Counted from the stretch's first letter, positions 1 to 8,785 are shown. The stretch is 10,226 bases of DNA from a virus (IMGVR_UViG_2681813004_000013:1-10226), one strand, 5' to 3'. Notes: generated from the sequence alone by a model not told the origin. Numbers and translations are program-made.

Positions 1-233
1 TTAACCTGGTCGCATTTTTCCTTCGACAGCTTCATTCCCGGTATGACGGGCTTACCATCCACCATTGTGGCACCACGACAGATGGTCCATATACCGGAAC
101 CATCGCGGTATGCCGTAGTGTGGTTACCCTCTTTTTCATCCAGAAACTGGTCAAGTATTTGAGGAGCAGATGCGCCTGCTCCAATCAGCGCCAGAACGAC
201 CGCTGACAGGCCGTATTTGATTTTTGCGTTCAT
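1..233 (-). CDS. SAR endolysin (phage 21 R / P1 Lyz-type lysozyme), N-terminal 77 codons; the CDS continues past the left window edge
   Basis: Minus-strand translation from the ATG at 233..231 gives MNAKIKYGLSAVVLALIGAGASAPQILDQFLDEKEGNHTTAYRDGSGIWTICRGATMVDGKPVIPGMKLSKEKCDQV. It stays open to position 1, so it is absent from the ORF track (no stop). The Gly/Ala-rich, weakly hydrophobic N-terminus looks like a signal-anchor-release domain. The E-x8-D-x5-T catalytic spacing (EGNHTTAYRDGSGIWT) matches phage 21-type lysozymes. It lies downstream of a pinholin gene. No obvious SD precedes the ATG. Confidence 0.85.
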   Translation of the reverse strand, partial: MNAKIKYGLSAVVLALIGAGASAPQILDQFLDEKEGNHTTAYRDGSGIWTICRGATMVDGKPVIPGMKLSKEKCDQV

Positions 234-338
234 GGATATTTATCAGGATTTATCGGTTTCTGAACCCTGGATATGTTTATCTGTCCCGGCCTGTTGAATC
301 AGGCGGGGAAAAGGTAAAGACAATCAAGAGGATTATTT

Positions 339-611
339 ATGGACAATAACACCATTTCTCTACAGGAGTTGCTCGACTGCATTTCCAGGCTTCGGGATGA
401 TGTAAATGCCCTCACTGTTGCATTTTCATATCTGGCTTTCTCAATTCCCAAAGAACAAATGAAACCAACACTGGCATCGCTTCTGCTTGAGTCACGCAAC
501 CCCAAATGGTCCCAGGAACAACAAAATTCTTTCAAGTGGCTGGCGGCATTACTGGAAGAAAAATATGCTGGTAAAATTACCATTTCGGTGGAGTCTTCAG
601 AGAACCAGTAA
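339..611 (+). CDS. Hypothetical 90-aa soluble, probably helical protein; the only plus-strand gene, sitting inside the lysis cassette
   Basis: ATG at 339 is preceded by AAGAGGA (326..332) at good spacing. The translation has protein-like composition, whereas the antisense ORF 299..646 looks like a shadow. I recognise no family. The upstream promoter is only weak (TTGAAT at 294..299, no convincing -10). Confidence 0.5.
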   Translation: MDNNTISLQELLDCISRLRDDVNALTVAFSYLAFSIPKEQMKPTLASLLLESRNPKWSQEQQNSFKWLAALLEEKYAGKITISVESSENQ

Positions 612-921
612 TTCTTCCCGGTAGCTTTCCTTTGTAGGTTATCCACACATTATGCGCCTCTAAAATTACGGGGCGCTTTTCCGGCGACTGCTCACTCCCT
701 TCACATAACCCGGCAGCAACATCCAGGAAGACCTGTCTGATGCTCCTTCTGGCTGCTGCCTCATAAAACTCCAGCGCGGCACCTTCAACACGGTCCAGCG
801 AGATGTCCAGGTCAAAAATTTCACCGTCAAAGCGTTTTTTGTCCCGTAACGCTAAAGTTACCGTAACTTTATTCTCAAAATTGCGGATCCCTTTCACAAT
901 CAGTTCATAGTTTTGAGTCAT
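577..921 (-). CDS. DUF1327 / YdfR-like prophage protein
   Basis: MTQNYELIVKGIRNFENKVTVTLALRDKKRFDGEIFDLDISLDRVEGAALEFYEAAARRS closely resembles my recollection of K-12 Qin prophage YdfR. The position (holin, DUF1327, lysozyme) matches Qin essQ-ydfR-rrrQ. A GGGGAGAG SD lies within the last holin codons. Confidence 0.8.
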   Translation of the reverse strand: MTQNYELIVKGIRNFENKVTVTLALRDKKRFDGEIFDLDISLDRVEGAALEFYEAAARRSIRQVFLDVAAGLCEGSEQSPEKRPVILEAHNVWITYKGKLPGRITGSLKTPPKW

Positions 922-925
922 TGAA

Positions 926-1141
926 TTACTCTCCCCGTGCAGCCTTACGCTTGTCTTCTTTAATCTTGAAATAAAGGTTTGTCAGATACGTCAGCAAGCC
1001 AAATACCAGACTACCCAGCACACCTATTGCCGCCCACTGTGAGGGCGTGACTTTATCGAGCAACTGTAAAAACCAGTACCCGGCACTACCTGCTGAGGTG
1101 CCATAGGCGACACCCGTTGTTAACTTATCCATGGATTTCAT
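926..1141 (-). CDS. Class II pinholin, phage 21 S21-like, with dual-start motif
   Basis: I trimmed ORF-track entry 926..1204 to the start at 1141. This gives [71 protein letters not shown] (71 aa). It is near-identical, as I remember it, to S21, including the Met1-Lys-Ser-Met4 antiholin/holin dual start. GAGGTGGGG lies directly upstream. It is paired with a SAR endolysin. Confidence 0.9.
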
Positions 1142-1176
1142 AACCCCACCTCGCAGATGCGGGTGCTGTGTAATGG

Positions 1177-1202
1177 AAATAAAAAGGCCACCTGACGTGG
1201 CC
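1177..1202 (-). terminator. Rho-independent terminator between the methylase remnant and the holin gene
   Basis: The minus strand reads GGCCAC-gtcag-GTGGCC followed by TTTTTATTT (plus-strand ggccac 1186..1191, gtggcc 1197..1202, A-run 1177..1185). Confidence 0.75.
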
Positions 1203-1208
1203 ACCAGA

Positions 1209-2141
1209 TTATTTCCCCACCAGCTCGTTTATCTCTTTCACTGTCTGGTTAAACCGCTCTGACTCAAGCTCAACACCTAAGGCCCGACGCCCCAGCGCCA
1301 TTGCTGCTTTTATTGTGGAACCGGATCCCATAAAAAAATCAGCAACCAGATCACCTGGTCGACTACTGGCATTGATTATTTGCCTGAGCATATCCGCCGG
1401 TTTCTCACACGGATGTTTCCCCGGGTAGAACTGAACGGGTTTATGCATCCAGACATCGGTATAAGGCACGGAGACTGATACGGAGAAATAGCGCCGGAGA
1501 GATTTAAACTCATCCAGCAATTCAGAATATTTGCGATTCAGTGAATCATAAGATGCCACCAGCTGGTGGTGTGGTTGTTCCAGTTGTTGTTCCTGAAACT
1601 TCTCTGCCGCTATACGGGAAAACAGTGCCTGTAACTTCCGATAGTCAGCCTCATTCGGCAACTGCCACTGACTGGCACCAAACCAGTGGGAAACCATATT
1701 TTTCTTACCTGTGGCTTCGGCAATTTGTTTTGCCGTTATACCCAGTTCGGCACGAGCATCCCTGAAATACGATATCAGCGGTGCCATTATGTGCTGTTTG
1801 AGTTCCCTTTCTTTTGCCGCATAGCCGTCACTTTTGCCGCGATATGGCCCCTGGTAATGTTCAGCAAACAGAACGCGCTCTGTGGCAGGAAAATATGCGC
1901 GCTGACTTTCTTTATTACACCCATTCCAACGTCCGGACGGCTTCGCCCAGATGATATGGTTAAGCACGTTGAAACGTTCACGCATCATGATCTCAATATC
2001 AGATGCCAGGCGATGCCCACAGAACAGGTAAAGGCTTCCGGCAGGTTTTAACACCCGCCAGAACTGGGCCAGACAGTGGTCCAGCCACTTAAGGTAATCT
2101 TCGTCCCCTTTCCACTGATTGTCCCAACCGTTAGGTTTCAC
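1209..2141 (-). pseudogene. 5'-truncated beta-class (N6-adenine/N4-cytosine) DNA methyltransferase
   Basis: The C-terminal part carries HPCEKP and FFMGSGST (AdoMet motif I), as expected for beta-class order. The N-terminal DPPY-type motif IV is absent, and the ORF-track start is a GTG at 2141..2139 with no SD. The reading frame upstream runs straight into tRNA sequence. By analogy with CcrM-like enzymes, roughly the first 50 or more residues are missing (inference). Confidence 0.65.
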
Positions 2142-2144
2142 CTT

Positions 2145-2179
2145 CAGTCTGCTCCCTTTGGCCGCTCGGGAACCCCACC
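2145..2179 (-). pseudogene. 5' half of a tRNA-Tyr gene (positions 1 to G34), truncated in the anticodon
   Basis: The minus strand reads GGTGGGGTTCCCGAGCGGCCAAAGGGAGCAGACTG. As I recall the sequence, this equals the acceptor 5' strand, D arm, anticodon-stem 5' strand and C32-U33-G34 of E. coli tRNA-Tyr (tyrT/U/V). Similarity ends abruptly after G34, and no T arm or 3' acceptor strand follows. Confidence 0.8.
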
Positions 2180-2187
2180 GGACTTGA

Positions 2188-2263
<76 letters not shown>

Positions 2264-2265
2264 AC

Positions 2266-2341
2266 TGGACCGCCACCGGGGACTCGAACCTCGCACACTC
2301 AACTTAAAGGGTTGACGCTCTTTCCTGATGGCTAGTGGCGG
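2266..2341 (-). tRNA. Aberrant tRNA-like gene (76 nt, CCA encoded); anticodon loop CCUUUAA, nominal anticodon UUU with C33
   Basis: The acceptor stem is perfect (CCGCCAC / GTGGCGG, then T-CCA). The anticodon stem TCAAC/GTTGA is intact, and a T loop TTCGAGT is present. The D stem has only 2 clean pairs (GCCA vs GAGC), the T stem has an A.C mismatch, position 33 is C instead of the near-universal U, and position 1 is C. It could be a degenerate argN-like tRNA or a functional non-canonical tRNA. Confidence 0.55.
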
Positions 2342-2342
2342 T

Positions 2343-2418
2343 TGGTGGCCCTTGCTGGATTTGAACCAGCGACCTGGCGATTATGAGTCGCTCGCTCTCA
2401 CCACTGAGCTAAAGGGCC
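2343..2418 (-). tRNA. tRNA-Ile2-like (anticodon CAU, ileX/ileZ type), 76 nt with CCA
   Basis: GGCCCTT / TA / GCTC-AGTGGTGA-GAGC / G / AGCGA-CTCATAA-TCGCC / AGGTC / GCTGG-TTCAAAT-CCAGC / AAGGGCC-A-CCA. It is very similar to my recollection of E. coli ileX, including C4 and C5 in the acceptor stem. Lambdoid and Stx phages carry an ileZ at this position. A tRNA-Met cannot be excluded from sequence alone. Confidence 0.85.
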
Positions 2419-2428
2419 GAGCCAAAAA

Positions 2429-2457
2429 ATAATAATCAGATGAAAATCAATAATCAA
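2429..2457 (-). promoter_or_regulatory. Candidate sigma70 promoter for the tRNA cassette
   Basis: The minus strand has TTGATT (2457..2452), a 17-nt spacer, then TATTAT (2434..2429). The predicted start, near 2422, is a few nt upstream of the tRNA-Ile 5' end (2418). The -35 overlaps the last codons of the AraC-type gene. Confidence 0.45.
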
Positions 2458-3160
2458 GCCCTTGCCTGGATACATATCTGTCTGGCGGGAAGCCATAATA
2501 GCGGTGAAATACAGAAATAAAGTAGGACCTGCTTGAATAACCGCATTTTTCTGCTATAGCCTGTCCATATCCATGCCGGGAACATAACATATTTACAGCA
2601 ACACGCATCCGCTCTTCCAGCAACAAGCGACTGAACATGCCCCCTTCATTTTTCAGTTTTGTCTTTAACAAACTCTCACTCATATGCAACTGTAGAGCAA
2701 TCGCACCAAGCGTCCAGCTTGCTGATATATCTGTCTGAATTATCGCCCTGACTTTGGCACTTATGCTGGATAAACATCCACTTAAAAACAATGACATCCG
2801 TTCATCTGTTTCAAACAGAGACAGGCAGGCCATCATAAGAAACATATCCGTGGCCTCTCCGGAAAATCCCTGGCTGGTAATTAAAGCCGCAGCCAACGCA
2901 GGATTGTTGGGTTCCAGCAACAGGTAAAGCGGAATGTCAGTCAGACGAGTCCTCGTCAGCTTATGCTGACTTTCCAGATATTGACTTACGACGGATTCGC
3001 TTATATCGACAATTTTAACTTTGCCATAATGCATAAGGAAAAGCTCCCTGATGCATTTGGTGGCCAGAACAACTGAGCCTGGCTTAAGTGACAACGTATC
3101 CTTTTCAAGAAAAATATTAATTGGGGAGCAAACCATGATAACTGAACAGACAACAGCCAT
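2447..3160 (-). CDS. AraC/XylS-family transcriptional regulator (GadX/GadW/YdeO/AppY-like subgroup; prophage moron of the PatE/Psr type)
   Basis: The C-terminal ~100 aa carry the twin HTH signature (WTLGAIALQLHMSESLLKTKLKNEGGMFSRLLLEERMRVAVNMLC...IAEKCGYSSRSYFISVFHRYYGFPPDRY). The gene is visibly AT-rich compared with its neighbours. The start is uncertain (ATG at 3160 or 3136; both have weak SDs). Confidence 0.85.
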   Translation of the reverse strand: MAVVCSVIMVCSPINIFLEKDTLSLKPGSVVLATKCIRELFLMHYGKVKIVDISESVVSQYLESQHKLTRTRLTDIPLYLLLEPNNPALAAALITSQGFSGEATDMFLMMACLSLFETDERMSLFLSGCLSSISAKVRAIIQTDISASWTLGAIALQLHMSESLLKTKLKNEGGMFSRLLLEERMRVAVNMLCSRHGYGQAIAEKCGYSSRSYFISVFHRYYGFPPDRYVSRQGLDY

Positions 3161-3195
3161 TATAATTTTACTTTCATTAGCAATTGGTTAGCTCA

Positions 3196-3226
3196 ATTAT
3201 AGCCCCAAAAGGTAAATTATCATCAA
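3196..3226 (-). promoter_or_regulatory. Possible promoter of the AraC-type gene
   Basis: The minus strand has a consensus TATAAT (3201..3196) with TTGATG (3226..3221) 19 nt upstream, which is a suboptimal spacer. It lies just downstream of the terminator at 3281..3307. Confidence 0.3.
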
Positions 3227-3280
3227 CACATAAGCAAAGGACTGACAGGTGTCGCCCCCCACCAGCCGCCCATTCACCAC

Positions 3281-3307
3281 AAATAAAAAGCCTTCAGGAC
3301 TGAAGGC
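3281..3307 (-). terminator. Rho-independent terminator overlapping the stop codon of the small wHTH gene
   Basis: The minus strand reads GCCTTCAG-tc-CTGAAGGC followed by TTTTTATTTG. The stop codon TGA (3296..3294) lies inside the hairpin. Confidence 0.7.
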
Positions 3308-3491
3308 GTCTGTAACAACCGCACTGATAGTCTGCCAGACCCGCCATAACAAGTTGGGTCAGTATTAACTGGCAGCGTTCGCGTGAAAGGTAAGTATTCT
3401 GCGCAATCTCCCCGACTGTCGCCGGTTCGGTAACGCTTAATTCATCAAACACAACTCTGGCGGTTTCTGTCATATCCTGCTGTTTCAGCAT
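3294..3491 (-). CDS. Small (65 aa) winged-helix protein, PapI/FaeA-like by pattern
   Basis: MLKQQDMTETARVVFDELSVTEPATVGEIAQNTYLSRERCQLILTQLVMAGLADYQ has the length and layout of PapI/FaeA-type small wHTH regulators (name-tag helix, then xxEIAxxxxLS, then recognition helix, then LxxxGL). GAAAGGG lies upstream of the ATG. The family assignment is from memory only. Confidence 0.55.
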   Translation of the reverse strand: MLKQQDMTETARVVFDELSVTEPATVGEIAQNTYLSRERCQLILTQLVMAGLADYQCGCYRRLQS

Positions 3492-3613
3492 GTCTTTTTA
3501 CCCTTTCCGGTTAACGTGACATACCAATAACTCTTGTCCAAAAAGCCAGCAAGCAGAAAGACCGGTATTCGCAACCACCAGCGTATTTAACGCCCCGTGC
3601 CGTTTTTCAGTCA

Positions 3614-3734: not shown

Positions 3735-4346
3735 TTAAAGCTGCATCAGCCTTTCCACCAGTTTATCTCTGCGAACAACAAACCAACCATTGGCTCTCGC
3801 CAGTTCCAGCCATGACTCAAGGGAAATAACAATATCATCATCCCGCAACTGAATTGTGGAAACAGTGACACCGCCTCGCTGATAACAGAGAACTCGCGTG
3901 TCGTAACTTTTCTGGCATGAAGCTGGCGCTGACGGATCCTTTTGTCTGAAATAGCACTCTTCCAGTTTTTCGAACACATCCCACGCCTGATCGGTTTCGA
4001 GCATTTTGGCGTGACGGGCTGCTCCGCGTTCTGTCCAGAGAATGAGGGAGCGGGCTTTCGGGGAAATTTGTAACCCTCTTAAAGATGGTTGCAAATTTTG
4101 TGAGTTACTTAAAGTAACCCGCAAATTTTGTGAGTAGTTTAAAGCTACCCGCAATTCTTTAAGGTCATTACCAACAACTTTGAAAAAGTGTTTCCCTTCA
4201 ACGAAGCGTACTTTGTTCTCATGATGATTCTGGCGAATGCGCACCGGCTCAGTGCCGTAAAGCTGCGCCAAAAGTTCGGTGGTAATAACAGGAATCTGGT
4301 TATGGGTGATCGGGGAGAGAGTTTCAACAGAAATTTGAGTTGTCAT
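3735..4346 (-). CDS. ORF6N/KilA-N-family DNA-binding protein (antirepressor-like), first gene after pR'-tR'
   Basis: The N-terminus IPVITTELLAQLYGTEPVRIRQNHHENKVRFVEGKHFFKVVGNDLKEL and the later SLILWTERGAARHAKML follow the ORF6N pattern (VMLDxDLAELYGVETKxLNQxVKRNxxRFPEDFMFQL...AFTEQGVAMLS). AGAGGG lies upstream of the ATG at 4346. Confidence 0.75.
   Translation of the reverse strand: MTTQISVETLSPITHNQIPVITTELLAQLYGTEPVRIRQNHHENKVRFVEGKHFFKVVGNDLKELRVALNYSQNLRVTLSNSQNLQPSLRGLQISPKARSLILWTERGAARHAKMLETDQAWDVFEKLEECYFRQKDPSAPASCQKSYDTRVLCYQRGGVTVSTIQLRDDDIVISLESWLELARANGWFVVRRDKLVERLMQL
4079..4168. repeat. Imperfect tandem repeat, three copies with an exact 30-bp period, in frame inside the ORF6N CDS
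   Basis: The copies start at 4079, 4109 and 4139: ttaaagatggttgcaaattttgtgagttac / ttaaagtaacccgcaaattttgtgagtagt / ttaaagctacccgcaattctttaaggtcat. They encode the decapeptide series LRVALNYSQN / LRVTLSNSQN / LQPSLRGLQI. Confidence 0.85.
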
Positions 4347-4504
4347 AATGACGCCCTCTGGTGGTTTCTTAATAACTCACCACCGACGACGCCAATCATC
4401 TGGTGGTGAACTGTGCGGGGTTGGCGTAACCGGGAAACCGACCGGCGCGGATCTCTCCGCCCCCACACAGCCCACCATAATTCAGATGTGCGCGTGCATA
4501 CGAC

Positions 4505-4529
4505 AATAAAAAACACGCTCGCGGCGTGT
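4505..4529 (-). terminator. tR'-like rho-independent terminator of the late-promoter leader
   Basis: The minus strand reads ACACGC-cgcga-GCGTGT followed by TTTTTTATT (plus-strand acacgc 4513..4518, gcgtgt 4524..4529). Confidence 0.75.
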
Positions 4530-4585
4530 ATCTGTCGCGGTCTCTATCCAGGACGCCAATCCCGACGCCAGATTTTGCTGGCGCG
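4506..4585 (-). ncRNA. Short (~80 nt) constitutive pR' leader transcript (lambda 6S / StxS-like position)
   Basis: It is bounded by the predicted start about 7 nt after the -10 (near 4584) and by the terminator at 4505..4529. It contains a 5' hairpin CGCCAG-caaaat-CTGGCG (4582..4565). Both ends are inferred, not measured. Confidence 0.45.
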
Positions 4586-4590
4586 TGAGG

Positions 4591-4620
4591 AATATAGCCC
4601 CGGATAACAGATTGAGTCAA
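4591..4620 (-). promoter_or_regulatory. pR'-type late promoter
   Basis: The minus strand has TTGACT (4620..4615), an 18-nt spacer, then TATATT (4596..4591). The -35 contains the stop codon of the Q-like gene. A short terminated leader follows, which is the canonical lambdoid Q / pR' / tR' layout. Confidence 0.7.
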
Positions 4621-5183
4621 CAGACGGTTTTTAGATCCCCGGAAGAGAATGCATCACGCATCGGCAGATAGAGCATAAACTCTGCCATTTTCAACCACGC
4701 ATCTATGCGATTACGGCACGTGGCGTAACACCACTCAGGGTGTGAATCATTCAGCAATTCAGCCATTTTGCGCTTAGTCATCCCCCGCCCCACATAACGC
4801 TGACTCAGAACATTGAGCAGCCCGGGATAACCTGCCAGTACTTCACCAATAACCCTGTCGATTATTAACGCCTCTGAATCGGTACAATGTGCCAGCCAGC
4901 TTTTTTGATTGCCGTTGATCATATCCCGCAAAAAAGCCTCAAGTTCAGGTTTGTCCAGACCCGCTTTTTTCATCCTCCGGAGCGCCTCGTTAATTGCCGT
5001 TTTTGTCAGCTTTTTAGAGGTCAGTAATTGGTTGAACATATTTCCCGTCTTACCGTCGCCAATATACGACCAACGCCCCCACATACGCAGTTTCCCCTGG
5101 ATCCAGACACTTTCCAGCGTTTTCAGGCGTAAATGCTCACCGCTTTTGCCTGTAATTTCCGGGTATATCATATTTATGCTCAC
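4617..5183 (-). CDS. Putative late-gene antiterminator (Q-like; resembles DUF1133-type prophage antitermination proteins)
   Basis: The evidence is mainly positional: the gene is directly after rusA and directly before pR'/tR'. The translation (…LRMWGRWSYIG…EALRRMKKAGLDKPELEAFLRDM…) resembles proteins annotated as antitermination proteins in E. coli prophages, by recollection and with low certainty. The start is either the GTG at 5183 (GTGA overlap with the rusA stop) or the ATG at 5171. Confidence 0.65.
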   Translation of the reverse strand: MSINMIYPEITGKSGEHLRLKTLESVWIQGKLRMWGRWSYIGDGKTGNMFNQLLTSKKLTKTAINEALRRMKKAGLDKPELEAFLRDMINGNQKSWLAHCTDSEALIIDRVIGEVLAGYPGLLNVLSQRYVGRGMTKRKMAELLNDSHPEWCYATCRNRIDAWLKMAEFMLYLPMRDAFSSGDLKTVC

Positions 5184-5545: not shown

Positions 5546-6604
5546 TCATGCTTTCCACTTCAGGACACCCGAATTTCTCGCGTGCATTAAAAAACGAATC
5601 AGCAACAACAGCTGGCTGCCGTGTTTCTCTTCAAATTCTCTTACCCCGGCATGTAGCTCGTTATGGCAGCGTCTACACAACGGAATAACAAACAAATCGT
5701 CAGCCTTTGTTCCCGTTCCCCCCAGTCCATGACCAATGATGTGATGCGGATCATCTGCCTGATTGCCACACGCCATGCACTTCTGCGTTTTTACCCACCG
5801 CGTGTATATCGGCATCTCTTCACGTTGTGGTTTCTGGCGTCTGAGGTATTGAGCAGGAGACTCCGGATCAACAGTTATGCTGACCACCGCTTTTTCCTGT
5901 TGTGGGTTCTGTTGCTGGTGGGCGTAAGGCAACGGCGCAAGATTTTTTGTGCGCTGCTTCAGTATGCTGGTGGCGCTCTGCTCTCCCGGTACGATGTCGC
6001 TTTCACGGTACATTGAGCGGATTTTTTCCGCACGCAACCCCAGCGAACGACGTAATACCGCTTCCGGTAGCGCGTCCGCCACCTGATTGCGGACCGCCCA
6101 CCAGGATAATTCAGCCAGAGATAATTCCCGTTCCTGTGCACCACTTATTGCGTGACGTATGACGTCAATCATCCAGGCTGTCAGATTTTGTTGAGCAAGC
6201 TGCCCGAGTGATTCGGATGTCTGGTCACGCAGCTGGTTGTCGCAGTGCCAGCACAACACCATTGCGCCGGTACCATAACGGTGAATGACGGTTTCACTGT
6301 GGTGATAATCGCCGTGTGGCCACTGGCAGGATTTAACATGACGCAGTAACCAGTCAGACAATGCGCCAGCGCCACCAGCAGCACGAATCACTCGTTCGTC
6401 GCTGAAAAATGGCAGTAATGATTTATCCTCCGCCAGCGGCTGGCGAACGGCAGGAACGACCCCAGACGGCAGATTACGCATGCTTTTCGGTTCCGGCTCC
6501 ACCAGTACCCGGGTATTGTGGAATACCGGCATGGATTCACGGCCCGGCTTAACGATCACCAGCCCGAGTTCCGGTACCAGAACAGGTCGAAGTAATACCC
6601 GCAC
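5546..6604 (-). CDS. DUF968 / YdfU-like protein with a C-terminal HNH-like zinc motif
   Basis: The C-terminus CMACGNQADDPHHIIGHGLGGTGTKADDLFVIPLCRRCHNELH has a CxxC…HH…CxxCH…H arrangement. The size and the position upstream of rusA match Qin YdfU. The GTG start at 6604 is preceded by GGAGG, which overlaps the upstream stop (GGAGGTAACGTG). Confidence 0.8.
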   Translation of the reverse strand: MRVLLRPVLVPELGLVIVKPGRESMPVFHNTRVLVEPEPKSMRNLPSGVVPAVRQPLAEDKSLLPFFSDERVIRAAGGAGALSDWLLRHVKSCQWPHGDYHHSETVIHRYGTGAMVLCWHCDNQLRDQTSESLGQLAQQNLTAWMIDVIRHAISGAQERELSLAELSWWAVRNQVADALPEAVLRRSLGLRAEKIRSMYRESDIVPGEQSATSILKQRTKNLAPLPYAHQQQNPQQEKAVVSITVDPESPAQYLRRQKPQREEMPIYTRWVKTQKCMACGNQADDPHHIIGHGLGGTGTKADDLFVIPLCRRCHNELHAGVREFEEKHGSQLLLLIRFLMHARNSGVLKWKA

Positions 6605-7338: not shown

Positions 7339-7494
7339 TTACTCCTCAGGTTCGTAAGCTGTGAAGACAGCGACCTCCGTCTGGCCGGTTCGGATTCGTA
7401 CCTCGCAGAGGTCTTTCCTCGTTACCAGTGCCGTCACTATGACGGTTAAACAGATGACGATCAGGGCGATTAACATCGCCTTTTGCTGCTTCAT
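7339..7494 (-). CDS. hok: Hok-family type I toxin (51 aa), HokD/RelF-like
   Basis: My own translation is MKQQKAMLIALIVICLTVIVTALVTRKDLCEVRIRTGQTEVAVFTAYEPEE. This matches my recollection of E. coli HokD (RelF). An AAGGAG SD lies upstream. The ORF is below the ORF-track size cut-off. Confidence 0.95.
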   Translation of the reverse strand: MKQQKAMLIALIVICLTVIVTALVTRKDLCEVRIRTGQTEVAVFTAYEPEE

Positions 7495-7550
7495 AGCCTG
7501 CTTCTCCTTGACCTTTCGGTCCGTAAGAGGCTAATCTCTATGTGTCGCAT
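7491..7550 (-). CDS. mok: mok-like leader ORF (19 codons) ending in an ATGA overlap with the hok start
   Basis: ATG CGA CAC ATA GAG ATT AGC CTC TTA CGG ACC GAA AGG TCA AGG AGA AGC AGG CTA TGA. GAGG lies 8 nt upstream of its ATG. The region aligns with the R1 mok start (…AGCCUCUUAC…CAAGGAGAAG…). It is much shorter than R1 mok. Confidence 0.45.
   Translation of the reverse strand: MRHIEISLLRTERSRRSRL
7508..7537 (+). promoter_or_regulatory. sok antisense promoter
   Basis: The plus strand has TTGACC (7508..7513), an 18-nt spacer, then TAATCT (7532..7537). The context taagaggcTAATCT parallels the R1 sok promoter region as I recall it. Confidence 0.5.
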
Positions 7551-7610
7551 AGATATGGCCTCAGATTAATGTTAAGCGTCTTGCCGGACGCGTAATGTTA
7601 ACTGGGGCTT
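7544..7610 (+). ncRNA. sok: Sok-like antisense RNA (approximate ends)
   Basis: It would start about 7 nt after the -10 and be antisense to the mok SD and start codon (7550..7548 and upstream). The 3' end is not well defined: the hairpin GCGTC-ttgccg-GACGC at 7576..7591 lacks a clean U tract. Confidence 0.45.
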
Positions 7611-7668
7611 TTCTCTGTCTGCCTTACGGCGGCATGCCCGAGGCAGACAGCCTCAAGCACCCGCAGCA

Positions 7669-7951: not shown

Positions 7952-8785
7952 TCATTGGTGCGCCCCCTGTATCGCTTCTACTGCGATCTGACTGGCGTAT
8001 TTGTTAATGGTAACGATAAGTTCTTGCTCGGCCTCATCCAGACAACCACCGATACCTCGCCTGTCACCTTCAGAAGCATCGAAATCTGCACGAACCCTGG
8101 CGACCTTCAGGATTGCGGACAACACCTCATCAGGGATTGCCGGAGAGTTGGTTGACGTTTCCGAGGTTATCCGAAAATTATTGGTTGACGAATTCTTATT
8201 TTCCCGAAAGTTTTCGGCATGAAGCATGGCGGTGTTATACCCATCCGCGAAAATCTCTGCTTCTTCGTTATTCAGTTCGGCACCAAGTTTAAGCGCAATA
8301 GCTTTTGCCATTGAGGCGGTAATTTGATGGCATGGCTGACGTCCATGAAGCATGGCGTCGCTCCGCTCTATGCCATCCAGCGCAATTCGAAGCGCATGAA
8401 TTGTAGTAATGCTATCGTTTGGGGTTATTCCGTATCGTTCGAATACAGCGATATGGTTGCGCATAATCGCAGGTGTAAGCTCTTTGTAAGCAAGAGCAAG
8501 AGGTCCAGATACATCGTTCAGCACTACCGTCATCGGTGAGGCGGCGTAGACTTCAATAATCCCAGTATCAATAGGCCATTCCCCATCCTTGATATAGTAA
8601 CTTGTTCCGTCAACTTGCTGTTCTACAATGTGGAAAGCACCTATTGGTTCTGCTTCCAGCGATGCCAGTGCAATTTTGAATAACTCGCCCTCTACCCGTG
8701 CCATCCCTGAATTGGGGTAGCATTTCGCAATCGCTATTTTTAATTTGGCTTCTTCGATTAATTTCTCTTTGGTTAATTCAGTCAC
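7952..8785 (-). CDS. Hypothetical 277-aa protein
   Basis: This is a long ORF with protein-like composition. It has an N-terminal helical segment ending ALASLEAEP, reminiscent of Ead/Ea22-like prophage proteins, and an S/T/N-rich linker (NKNSSTNNFRITSETSTNS). It has a GTG start at 8785. No confident family assignment. Confidence 0.7.
   Translation of the reverse strand: MTELTKEKLIEEAKLKIAIAKCYPNSGMARVEGELFKIALASLEAEPIGAFHIVEQQVDGTSYYIKDGEWPIDTGIIEVYAASPMTVVLNDVSGPLALAYKELTPAIMRNHIAVFERYGITPNDSITTIHALRIALDGIERSDAMLHGRQPCHQITASMAKAIALKLGAELNNEEAEIFADGYNTAMLHAENFRENKNSSTNNFRITSETSTNSPAIPDEVLSAILKVARVRADFDASEGDRRGIGGCLDEAEQELIVTINKYASQIAVEAIQGAHQ

Follow-up and report, generated by a model that had tools for sequence, protein, structure and literature searches.

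The window analysed here (IMGVR_UViG_2681813004_000013:1-10226, the whole stretch of 10,226 nucleotides) corresponds to the late region of a lambdoid prophage from Escherichia and reads on the minus strand. Its plus strand carries a genuine protein-coding gene, ORF90 (339..611; ATG at 339, TAA at 609-611), which encodes 90 amino acids (aa) and is under purifying selection. The gene is located in the 343 bp that separate ydfR (DUF1327; 577..921, minus strand; Pfam E=5.9e-42), present in its 114-aa form and convergent with ORF90, from the gene for the phage lysozyme R (1..233, minus strand), whose 5' part, encoding a hydrophobic N-terminus, is interrupted by the window end. In our judgement there is about an even chance that ORF90 is a moron, that is, a self-contained accessory gene reversed between ydfR and the endolysin gene, expressed from the prophage and playing a cytoplasmic role other than lysis. 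New here are antisense relatives in the late regions of Citrobacter-type prophages and a syntenic chromosomal gene in Serratia, Sodalis and their relatives.

A first-pass annotation of this DNA had described the open reading frame (ORF), its Shine-Dalgarno (SD) sequence, a 35-bp overlap with ydfR and a hairpin at 654-676, and all of these were found where it had placed them. It had also made conservation of the frame in related prophages a touchstone for the gene. Of 175 related loci, 174 have an intact ORF90 (90 aa in 172 and 89 aa in two) and one has a truncated form. The SD sequence AAGAGGA (326..332, plus strand) lies 6 nt 5' of the ATG, and the SD-start region, [A/G]AGGATT[A/G]TTTATGG, shows no variation in 46 haplotypes; the 22 nt upstream of the SD (304-325) are the most variable stretch of the ORF90 region. 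In the non-overlapping part of the gene, the ratio of nonsynonymous to synonymous polymorphism (pN/pS) was 0.29 at a pS of 0.21 in the same 46 haplotypes. The intact plus frame, the invariant SD and start and the predicted fold described below therefore establish ORF90 as a plus-strand protein-coding gene. The earlier description of ORF90 as the only credible plus-strand gene of the window is not contradicted: the other plus-strand ORFs of at least 60 aa, which were not examined one by one, lie within minus-strand genes or over minus-strand RNAs called by Rfam.

The opposite assignment, in which the true gene runs in the direction of the lysis genes, as the minus-strand ORF 299..646 (115 aa) or a 94-aa form of it that starts at an internal ATG at 583, and ORF90 is its antisense shadow, is almost certainly wrong. 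This ORF is uninterrupted in the window as well as in 27 of 28 close haplotypes, its ATG at 583 overlaps the ydfR stop codon (ATGGTAA) in the manner of translationally coupled genes, and its pN/pS is no higher than that of ORF90 (0.29 vs 0.37 in the 28 close haplotypes; 0.24 vs 0.29 in the 46 haplotypes). However, the low value is expected because the third codon positions of the two frames coincide, and pN/pS thus cannot tell the strands apart, while stop codons can. The minus frame carries stops or has lost the ATG in 88 of the 175 loci, in at least five clades including one of 58 loci, against a single broken plus frame. Stops 5' of codon 22, upstream of the ATG at 583, also exclude a start at GTG 646. 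The minus-strand product has a serine- and cysteine-rich composition and no match in PHROG, and remote homologues were found for the plus-frame protein only. The distribution of stop codons and the loss of the ATG refute the minus-strand ORF, in either form, as a real gene.

ORF90 lies within an optional segment. A cassette of 273 bp (304..576) is missing from the collinear phage vB_EcoS-689R5, in which the flanks align on both sides and the lysozyme gene comes 63 bp after the ydfR stop. The K-12 prophage Qin also has no insert, and its ydfR overlaps rrrQ directly. These comparisons bear out the earlier view of ORF90 as a moron-like insert convergent with the late genes, and the proposed survey of related cassettes found both states: 1125 of the 5426 complete genomes of E. 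coli (21%) carry the insert, at 1232 places, where it is always annotated as 'hypothetical protein'. With ydfR at 8243 places in 4287 genomes, the insert accompanies about 15% of ydfR copies, and ydfR without ORF90 is about seven times commoner. Among 50,697 deposited phage genomes the insert occurs in three, Chlobot, vB_EcoS-783R2 and phiSTEC1575-Stx2k, the first and last of which are functional phages. Other carriers are BL21 and records of E. albertii, Shigella and Salmonella, and in two Shiga toxin (Stx)-converting prophages (L174 and L176) ORF90 is present directly downstream of stx. The GC content of the insert is 42.9%, a modest difference from ydfR (47.2%), the holin gene (47.9%) and R (50.6%). 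A search for ends resembling those of miniature inverted-repeat transposable elements or insertion sequences (IS) gave just one 70%-complementary pair of 20 nt and short chance repeats. IS elements of the IS3 and IS66 families were repeatedly observed, in different strains, in or next to ydfR, the holin gene or ORF90 (L019, L169, L174, L227), with ORF90 intact.

The insert had been thought to separate the endolysin from the holin, but ydfR already lies between the two in insert-less cassettes. The annotation was right that R has no obvious SD and wrong to see the insertion as the cause. Between the insert and the R start there is a conserved leader of 70 bp (234..303) that contains three GGAT(AT)(G)TTTATC-like copies and lacks an SD for R. 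This leader lies outside the insert and is common to insert-less cassettes, and therefore the missing SD of R was not brought about by the insertion. It is also shared by cassettes that have Phage_holin_8, holin_3_7 and Peptidase_M15_4 in place of the lysozyme; in two of them (L175 and L177) the same leader precedes the Phage_holin_8 gene and homology stops exactly at the CAT start codon. One possibility is that this conserved leader serves in translation initiation or marks a recombination junction.

AlphaFold2 was run on alignments of 17 and of 44 sequences, and both runs gave the same helices for the ORF90 protein (residues 8-35, 38-52 and 59-76) at a mean predicted local distance difference test score of 82.4 and 81.2, with a disordered C-terminal tail. 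The isoelectric point is 4.8, the grand average of hydropathy -0.34 and the maximum Kyte-Doolittle mean over 19 residues 0.88. Neither a transmembrane (TM) segment nor a signal sequence was predicted in ORF90 and no holin family of Pfam was hit, so the protein does not qualify as a holin, antiholin or pinholin. The predictions describe an acidic, soluble and cytoplasmic three-helix protein of 10.2 kDa.

Although the first-pass annotation could not assign ORF90 to any family, the protein matches PHROG 2411, a family of unknown function, with E=3.2e-57 (residues 1-90 on a 90-position profile). An identical sequence sits in the UniRef cluster named Ybl58, and the RefSeq protein WP_000370549.1 and its relatives ('hypothetical protein') belong to this PHROG 2411/'Ybl58' family. 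Pfam and NCBIfam gave no match for ORF90 or its homologues, PADLOC-DB v2 (E<=1) none for ORF90, three homologues or YdfR, and a search for structural neighbours of ORF90 found none. Our literature search returned no paper on Ybl58, nothing relevant on DUF1327 or on the dinI-bssS region in Serratia, and no paper linking ydfR with a holin.

Exhaustive HMMER searching and a profile search revealed homologues outside Escherichia, Shigella, E. albertii and Salmonella, with identities down to about 28-40%. All members share the motif ELL..I..LR..VN.L..AFSYLAF...L.FES.N. In a Citrobacter prophage (L179), an 83-aa homologue of about 60% identity is encoded antisense just upstream of the holin gene, and in a lambdoid element (L228) an 88-aa homologue of about 40% identity, likewise antisense, adjoins small late genes and the terminase. 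IMG/VR scans with two of the proteins (P0033 and P0065) and one metagenome scan for distant phage homologues were without result, and a scan of the same type with P0080 gave two loci and no new distant context. A third group is a chromosomal clade of genes of about 92 codons, here called X, in Serratia, Sodalis (including endosymbionts), Acerihabitans, Chimaeribacter, Biostraticola and a Pantoea. X lies strictly between dinI and bssS (L178, at 6001-6282, and L182-L224), and the order pyrC-dinI-X-bssS-solA is kept in all 43 syntenic loci, one per species; the last of the 44 loci ends at a contig end. The pN/pS of this clade is 0.25. We know of no gene between dinI and bssS in E. coli K-12. Origin of X as a paralogue of BssS or DinI was considered and rejected (hhalign probability 0.1-0.2%). 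A LexA box (CTG-N10-CAG), as expected of an SOS regulon member such as dinI, is absent from window positions 150-345 upstream of ORF90, and in the chromosomal loci the string occurs in a subset only and is not conserved across the clade.

All three phage contexts share an architecture: the ORF90-like gene and a small gene converge and overlap at their 3' ends, and the products of the small genes have related C-terminal tails. In the window the overlap is 35 bp (577..611), and the last 11 residues of ORF90, which belong to its disordered tail, are encoded opposite the YdfR tail ITGSLKTPPKW (577-650, minus strand; ...RITGSLKTPPKW). The partner in Citrobacter is a 63-aa protein ending in ITGSLRAPIKL (L179 5239-5430; ...KITGSLRAPIKL), and that in the lambdoid element is a 62-aa protein ending in LTGDILIPLES (L228 5248-5436; ...RLTGDILIPLES); the pairwise E-values were 0.003 and 7e-7. 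The C-terminus of YdfR is polymorphic: the K-12 form (103 aa) ends in ...ERPHHKYL and the 114- and 116-aa forms in ...GRITGSLKTPP... At the sequence level, this suggests that the 3' end of ydfR is chimeric. The convergent pairing is not obligate. ORF90 is kept in loci in which ydfR is largely deleted (L165-167), and the chromosomal clade has no such partner. Nor does ORF90 depend on the lysozyme gene, since it is kept in loci in which Phage_holin_8, holin_3_7 or Peptidase_M15_4 replace the lysozyme (L175-177). An obligate, toxin-antitoxin-like pair of ydfR and ORF90 was rejected because each is found without the other. YdfR itself binds RNase E's N-terminal (catalytic) domain and perhaps RNA (PMC13232886).

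The reading of ORF90 as a moron draws on its presence or precise absence in collinear relatives, on a base composition that differs, if modestly, from that of its neighbors and on its direction. This reading, in which the orientation insulates ORF90 from late transcription, is the best supported. Because ORF90 runs against Q-dependent late transcription, its expression would be independent of the lysis genes, and it most plausibly takes place from the repressed prophage. The protein would then work through contact with a host (or phage) protein in the cytoplasm of the host, would not be part of the holin-endolysin-spanin machinery, and may have the same function in the lysogen as the chromosomal orthologue has in Serratia.

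Several observations weigh against this reading. A promoter and terminator of its own are part of the definition of a moron. A sigma-70 promoter scan upstream of ORF90 found none reaching the threshold, and from the sole promoter-like match (TTGAAT at 294, a 19-nt spacer and [G/T]ACAAT at 319-324, plus strand; 8-9 of 12 positions) the transcription start would fall within the ORF90 SD. The weak candidate terminator (654..680, plus strand), in which GCGCCUC (654-660) and GGGGCGC (670-676) would pair over 7 bp with a 9-nt loop before UUUU, starts 43 nt past the ORF90 stop within the ydfR coding sequence, and this sequence is common to insert-less variants. The hairpin, a possible terminator as the first-pass annotation suggested, appears in the minimum free energy fold and is partly kept in loci with a ydfR deletion, but the terminator scan made no call at 654-676 and shuffled sequences are just as structured as the region (z=-0.77). 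Every phage-borne copy seen lies in a lysis or late region, which could mean a role in lysis. A minority of ORF90 alleles are pseudogenised (P0041, P0043, P0049, P0050, P0052 and P0063); the allele defects observed comprise recurrent frameshifts at about codon 58, giving 94-aa products, and a 56-aa product ending after K56 in 12 contigs. Finally, because the protein has no functional family, defence model or structural neighbor, the binding of a host protein is something that we purely infer.

The first-pass annotation had suggested a modulator of lysis timing. In such a model, the ORF90 protein or the convergent transcript tunes lysis through YdfR, the holin, the endolysin or the ydfR-R mRNA. 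The lysis or late region does harbor all phage-borne members seen (in E. coli between ydfR and either R or Phage_holin_8, in Citrobacter just upstream of the holin gene, and in L228 upstream of small late genes), the related tail of the convergent partner is conserved in three contexts, and YdfR itself binds RNase E. However, ORF90 and the lysis genes are on opposite strands and therefore are not co-expressed, and ydfR mostly occurs without ORF90 while ORF90 persists without ydfR. The idea received no direct support and is weakened because the chromosomal homologues, at dinI-bssS in 43 species, sit far from any lysis gene and because the protein is soluble and acidic and lacks a TM segment or signal sequence; we consider it unlikely. 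A prophage-expressed factor for defence, superinfection exclusion or anti-defence is in our view also unlikely. It would suit the moron architecture, the patchy distribution, the small protein of unknown fold and the known hotspot of accessory genes near the lysis cassette, and neighboring slots of relatives carry accessory genes including toxin-antitoxin genes such as ParE/ParD (L165). On the other hand, no PADLOC model matches ORF90 or its relatives, ORF90 is a lone protein of 90 aa with neither an enzymatic nor a membrane domain, and the syntenic, vertically inherited chromosomal clade, with Sodalis endosymbionts among its hosts, resembles a housekeeping or regulatory gene and not a gene of a defence island.

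A function at the RNA or DNA level only, as an antisense RNA or through transcriptional interference with late mRNA, with the ORF incidental, had been raised as well. ORF90 is convergent with late transcription, and a transcript that stopped at the 654-676 hairpin would be antisense to the 3' end of the ydfR mRNA. An antisense-only role is nevertheless very unlikely because conservation is at the protein level: the reading frame, SD and start are kept at 71-96% protein identity, and the homologues at 28-40% identity keep the length and motif despite their diverged DNA. The region is not unusually structured, and Rfam 15 searched at E<=1 over window positions 1-3500 returned tRNAs only, with nothing in 234-646 at the gathering score. 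A broader proposal, which we regard as distinctly doubtful, is that the ORF90 family consists of unrecognised small enterobacterial regulators, ancestrally encoded by the chromosomal dinI-bssS gene and captured by lambdoid phages. In phages the gene would form a conserved two-gene module with the convergent partner bearing the ITGSL-type tail, which in E. coli is fused to the RNase E-binding YdfR, and the module would couple lysogeny to the processing or expression of the late lysis mRNA either through convergent, 3'-overlapping transcription or through binding of ORF90 to YdfR or RNase E.

The other features noted in the window are on the minus strand. Genes for a DUF977 protein, a DUF968/HNH protein and RusA are followed in this order by that for a Q-type antiterminator (4617-5183). 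An ORF6N protein, which is antirepressor-like, is encoded at 3735-4346 and followed by an AraC-type regulator. Further on are a tRNA cluster for Met-CAT, Lys and Thr (2188-2418), a DNA methyltransferase gene (1209-2141) and the gene for the P21-type holin S (926..1144; Phage_holin_2_1 in Pfam). The slot from Q to the holin (1209-3160) is taken up by the AraC-type regulator, the tRNA cluster and the methyltransferase; in the related prophages L174 and L176 it is filled by Shiga toxin genes (RIP + SLT_beta) after the same AraC-type gene. A strong terminator-like hairpin (1186-1209), GGCCACGTCAGGTGGCC then TTTTTATTT, lies between the methyltransferase and holin genes, within the presumed late operon. 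Rfam matched three RNAs directly 3' of the Q gene and 5' of the ORF6N gene, namely a C4 antisense RNA (4399-4482), isrK (4508-4584) and c4-a1b1 targets (4545-4597). Together with the ORF6N gene, the RNAs at 4399-4597 look like a c4-ant module of the P1/P7 style at the expected site of the late promoter region. A hok/sok type I toxin-antitoxin locus (7339-7662) was observed in a stretch of about 1 kb without long ORFs; it comprises a 51-aa Hok-like ORF (7339-7494; MKQQKAMLIALIVICLTVIVTALVTRKDLCEV...) and a sok RNA (Rfam RF01794, 105.9 bits, 7492-7662).

ORF90 is a gene carried by about one fifth of complete E. coli genomes, including Stx-converting prophages, with no Pfam, NCBIfam or defence model. 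The proof that the plus strand is coding and that the antisense ORF is a wobble artefact provides experimenters with a defined target, and the syntenic Serratia/Sodalis gene offers a second, non-phage system for study. As it stands, ORF90 is one more uncharacterised, moron-like gene and does not represent a new kind of system.

The closest known counterpart is PHROG 2411/'Ybl58' itself, which is the same family at the same position between ydfR and the lysozyme gene in over 1000 genomes of E. coli, with no assigned function. The moron concept reportedly goes back to the work of Juhala and Hendrix on lambdoid phages. Like lambda bor and other lambdoid morons, ORF90 is optional in collinear phages, adjoins the lysis genes, runs against late transcription and has a lower GC content; in view of this moron-like placement, it is presumably expressible from the prophage. 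No similarity in sequence or fold is known between bor and ORF90, and whereas Bor is a secreted lipoprotein, ORF90 is predicted to be cytoplasmic. The chromosomal gene X (for example P0084 of S. marcescens) is homologous to ORF90 (profile E of about 1e-24, 33-39% identity) and shares with it the length, the AFSYLAF/LxxES motif and the predicted helical build. Unlike ORF90, X is inherited vertically, single-copy and co-directional with its neighbors, with no convergent partner or phage genes. Like ORF90, YdfR is a small, cytoplasmic protein with an accessory place in lambdoid lysis cassettes, and the two genes are linked by the 35-bp overlap. Nevertheless, YdfR differs in its unrelated sequence, its opposite strand, its occurrence at 8243 rather than 1232 places and its reported binding to the N-terminal domain of RNase E (PMC13232886).
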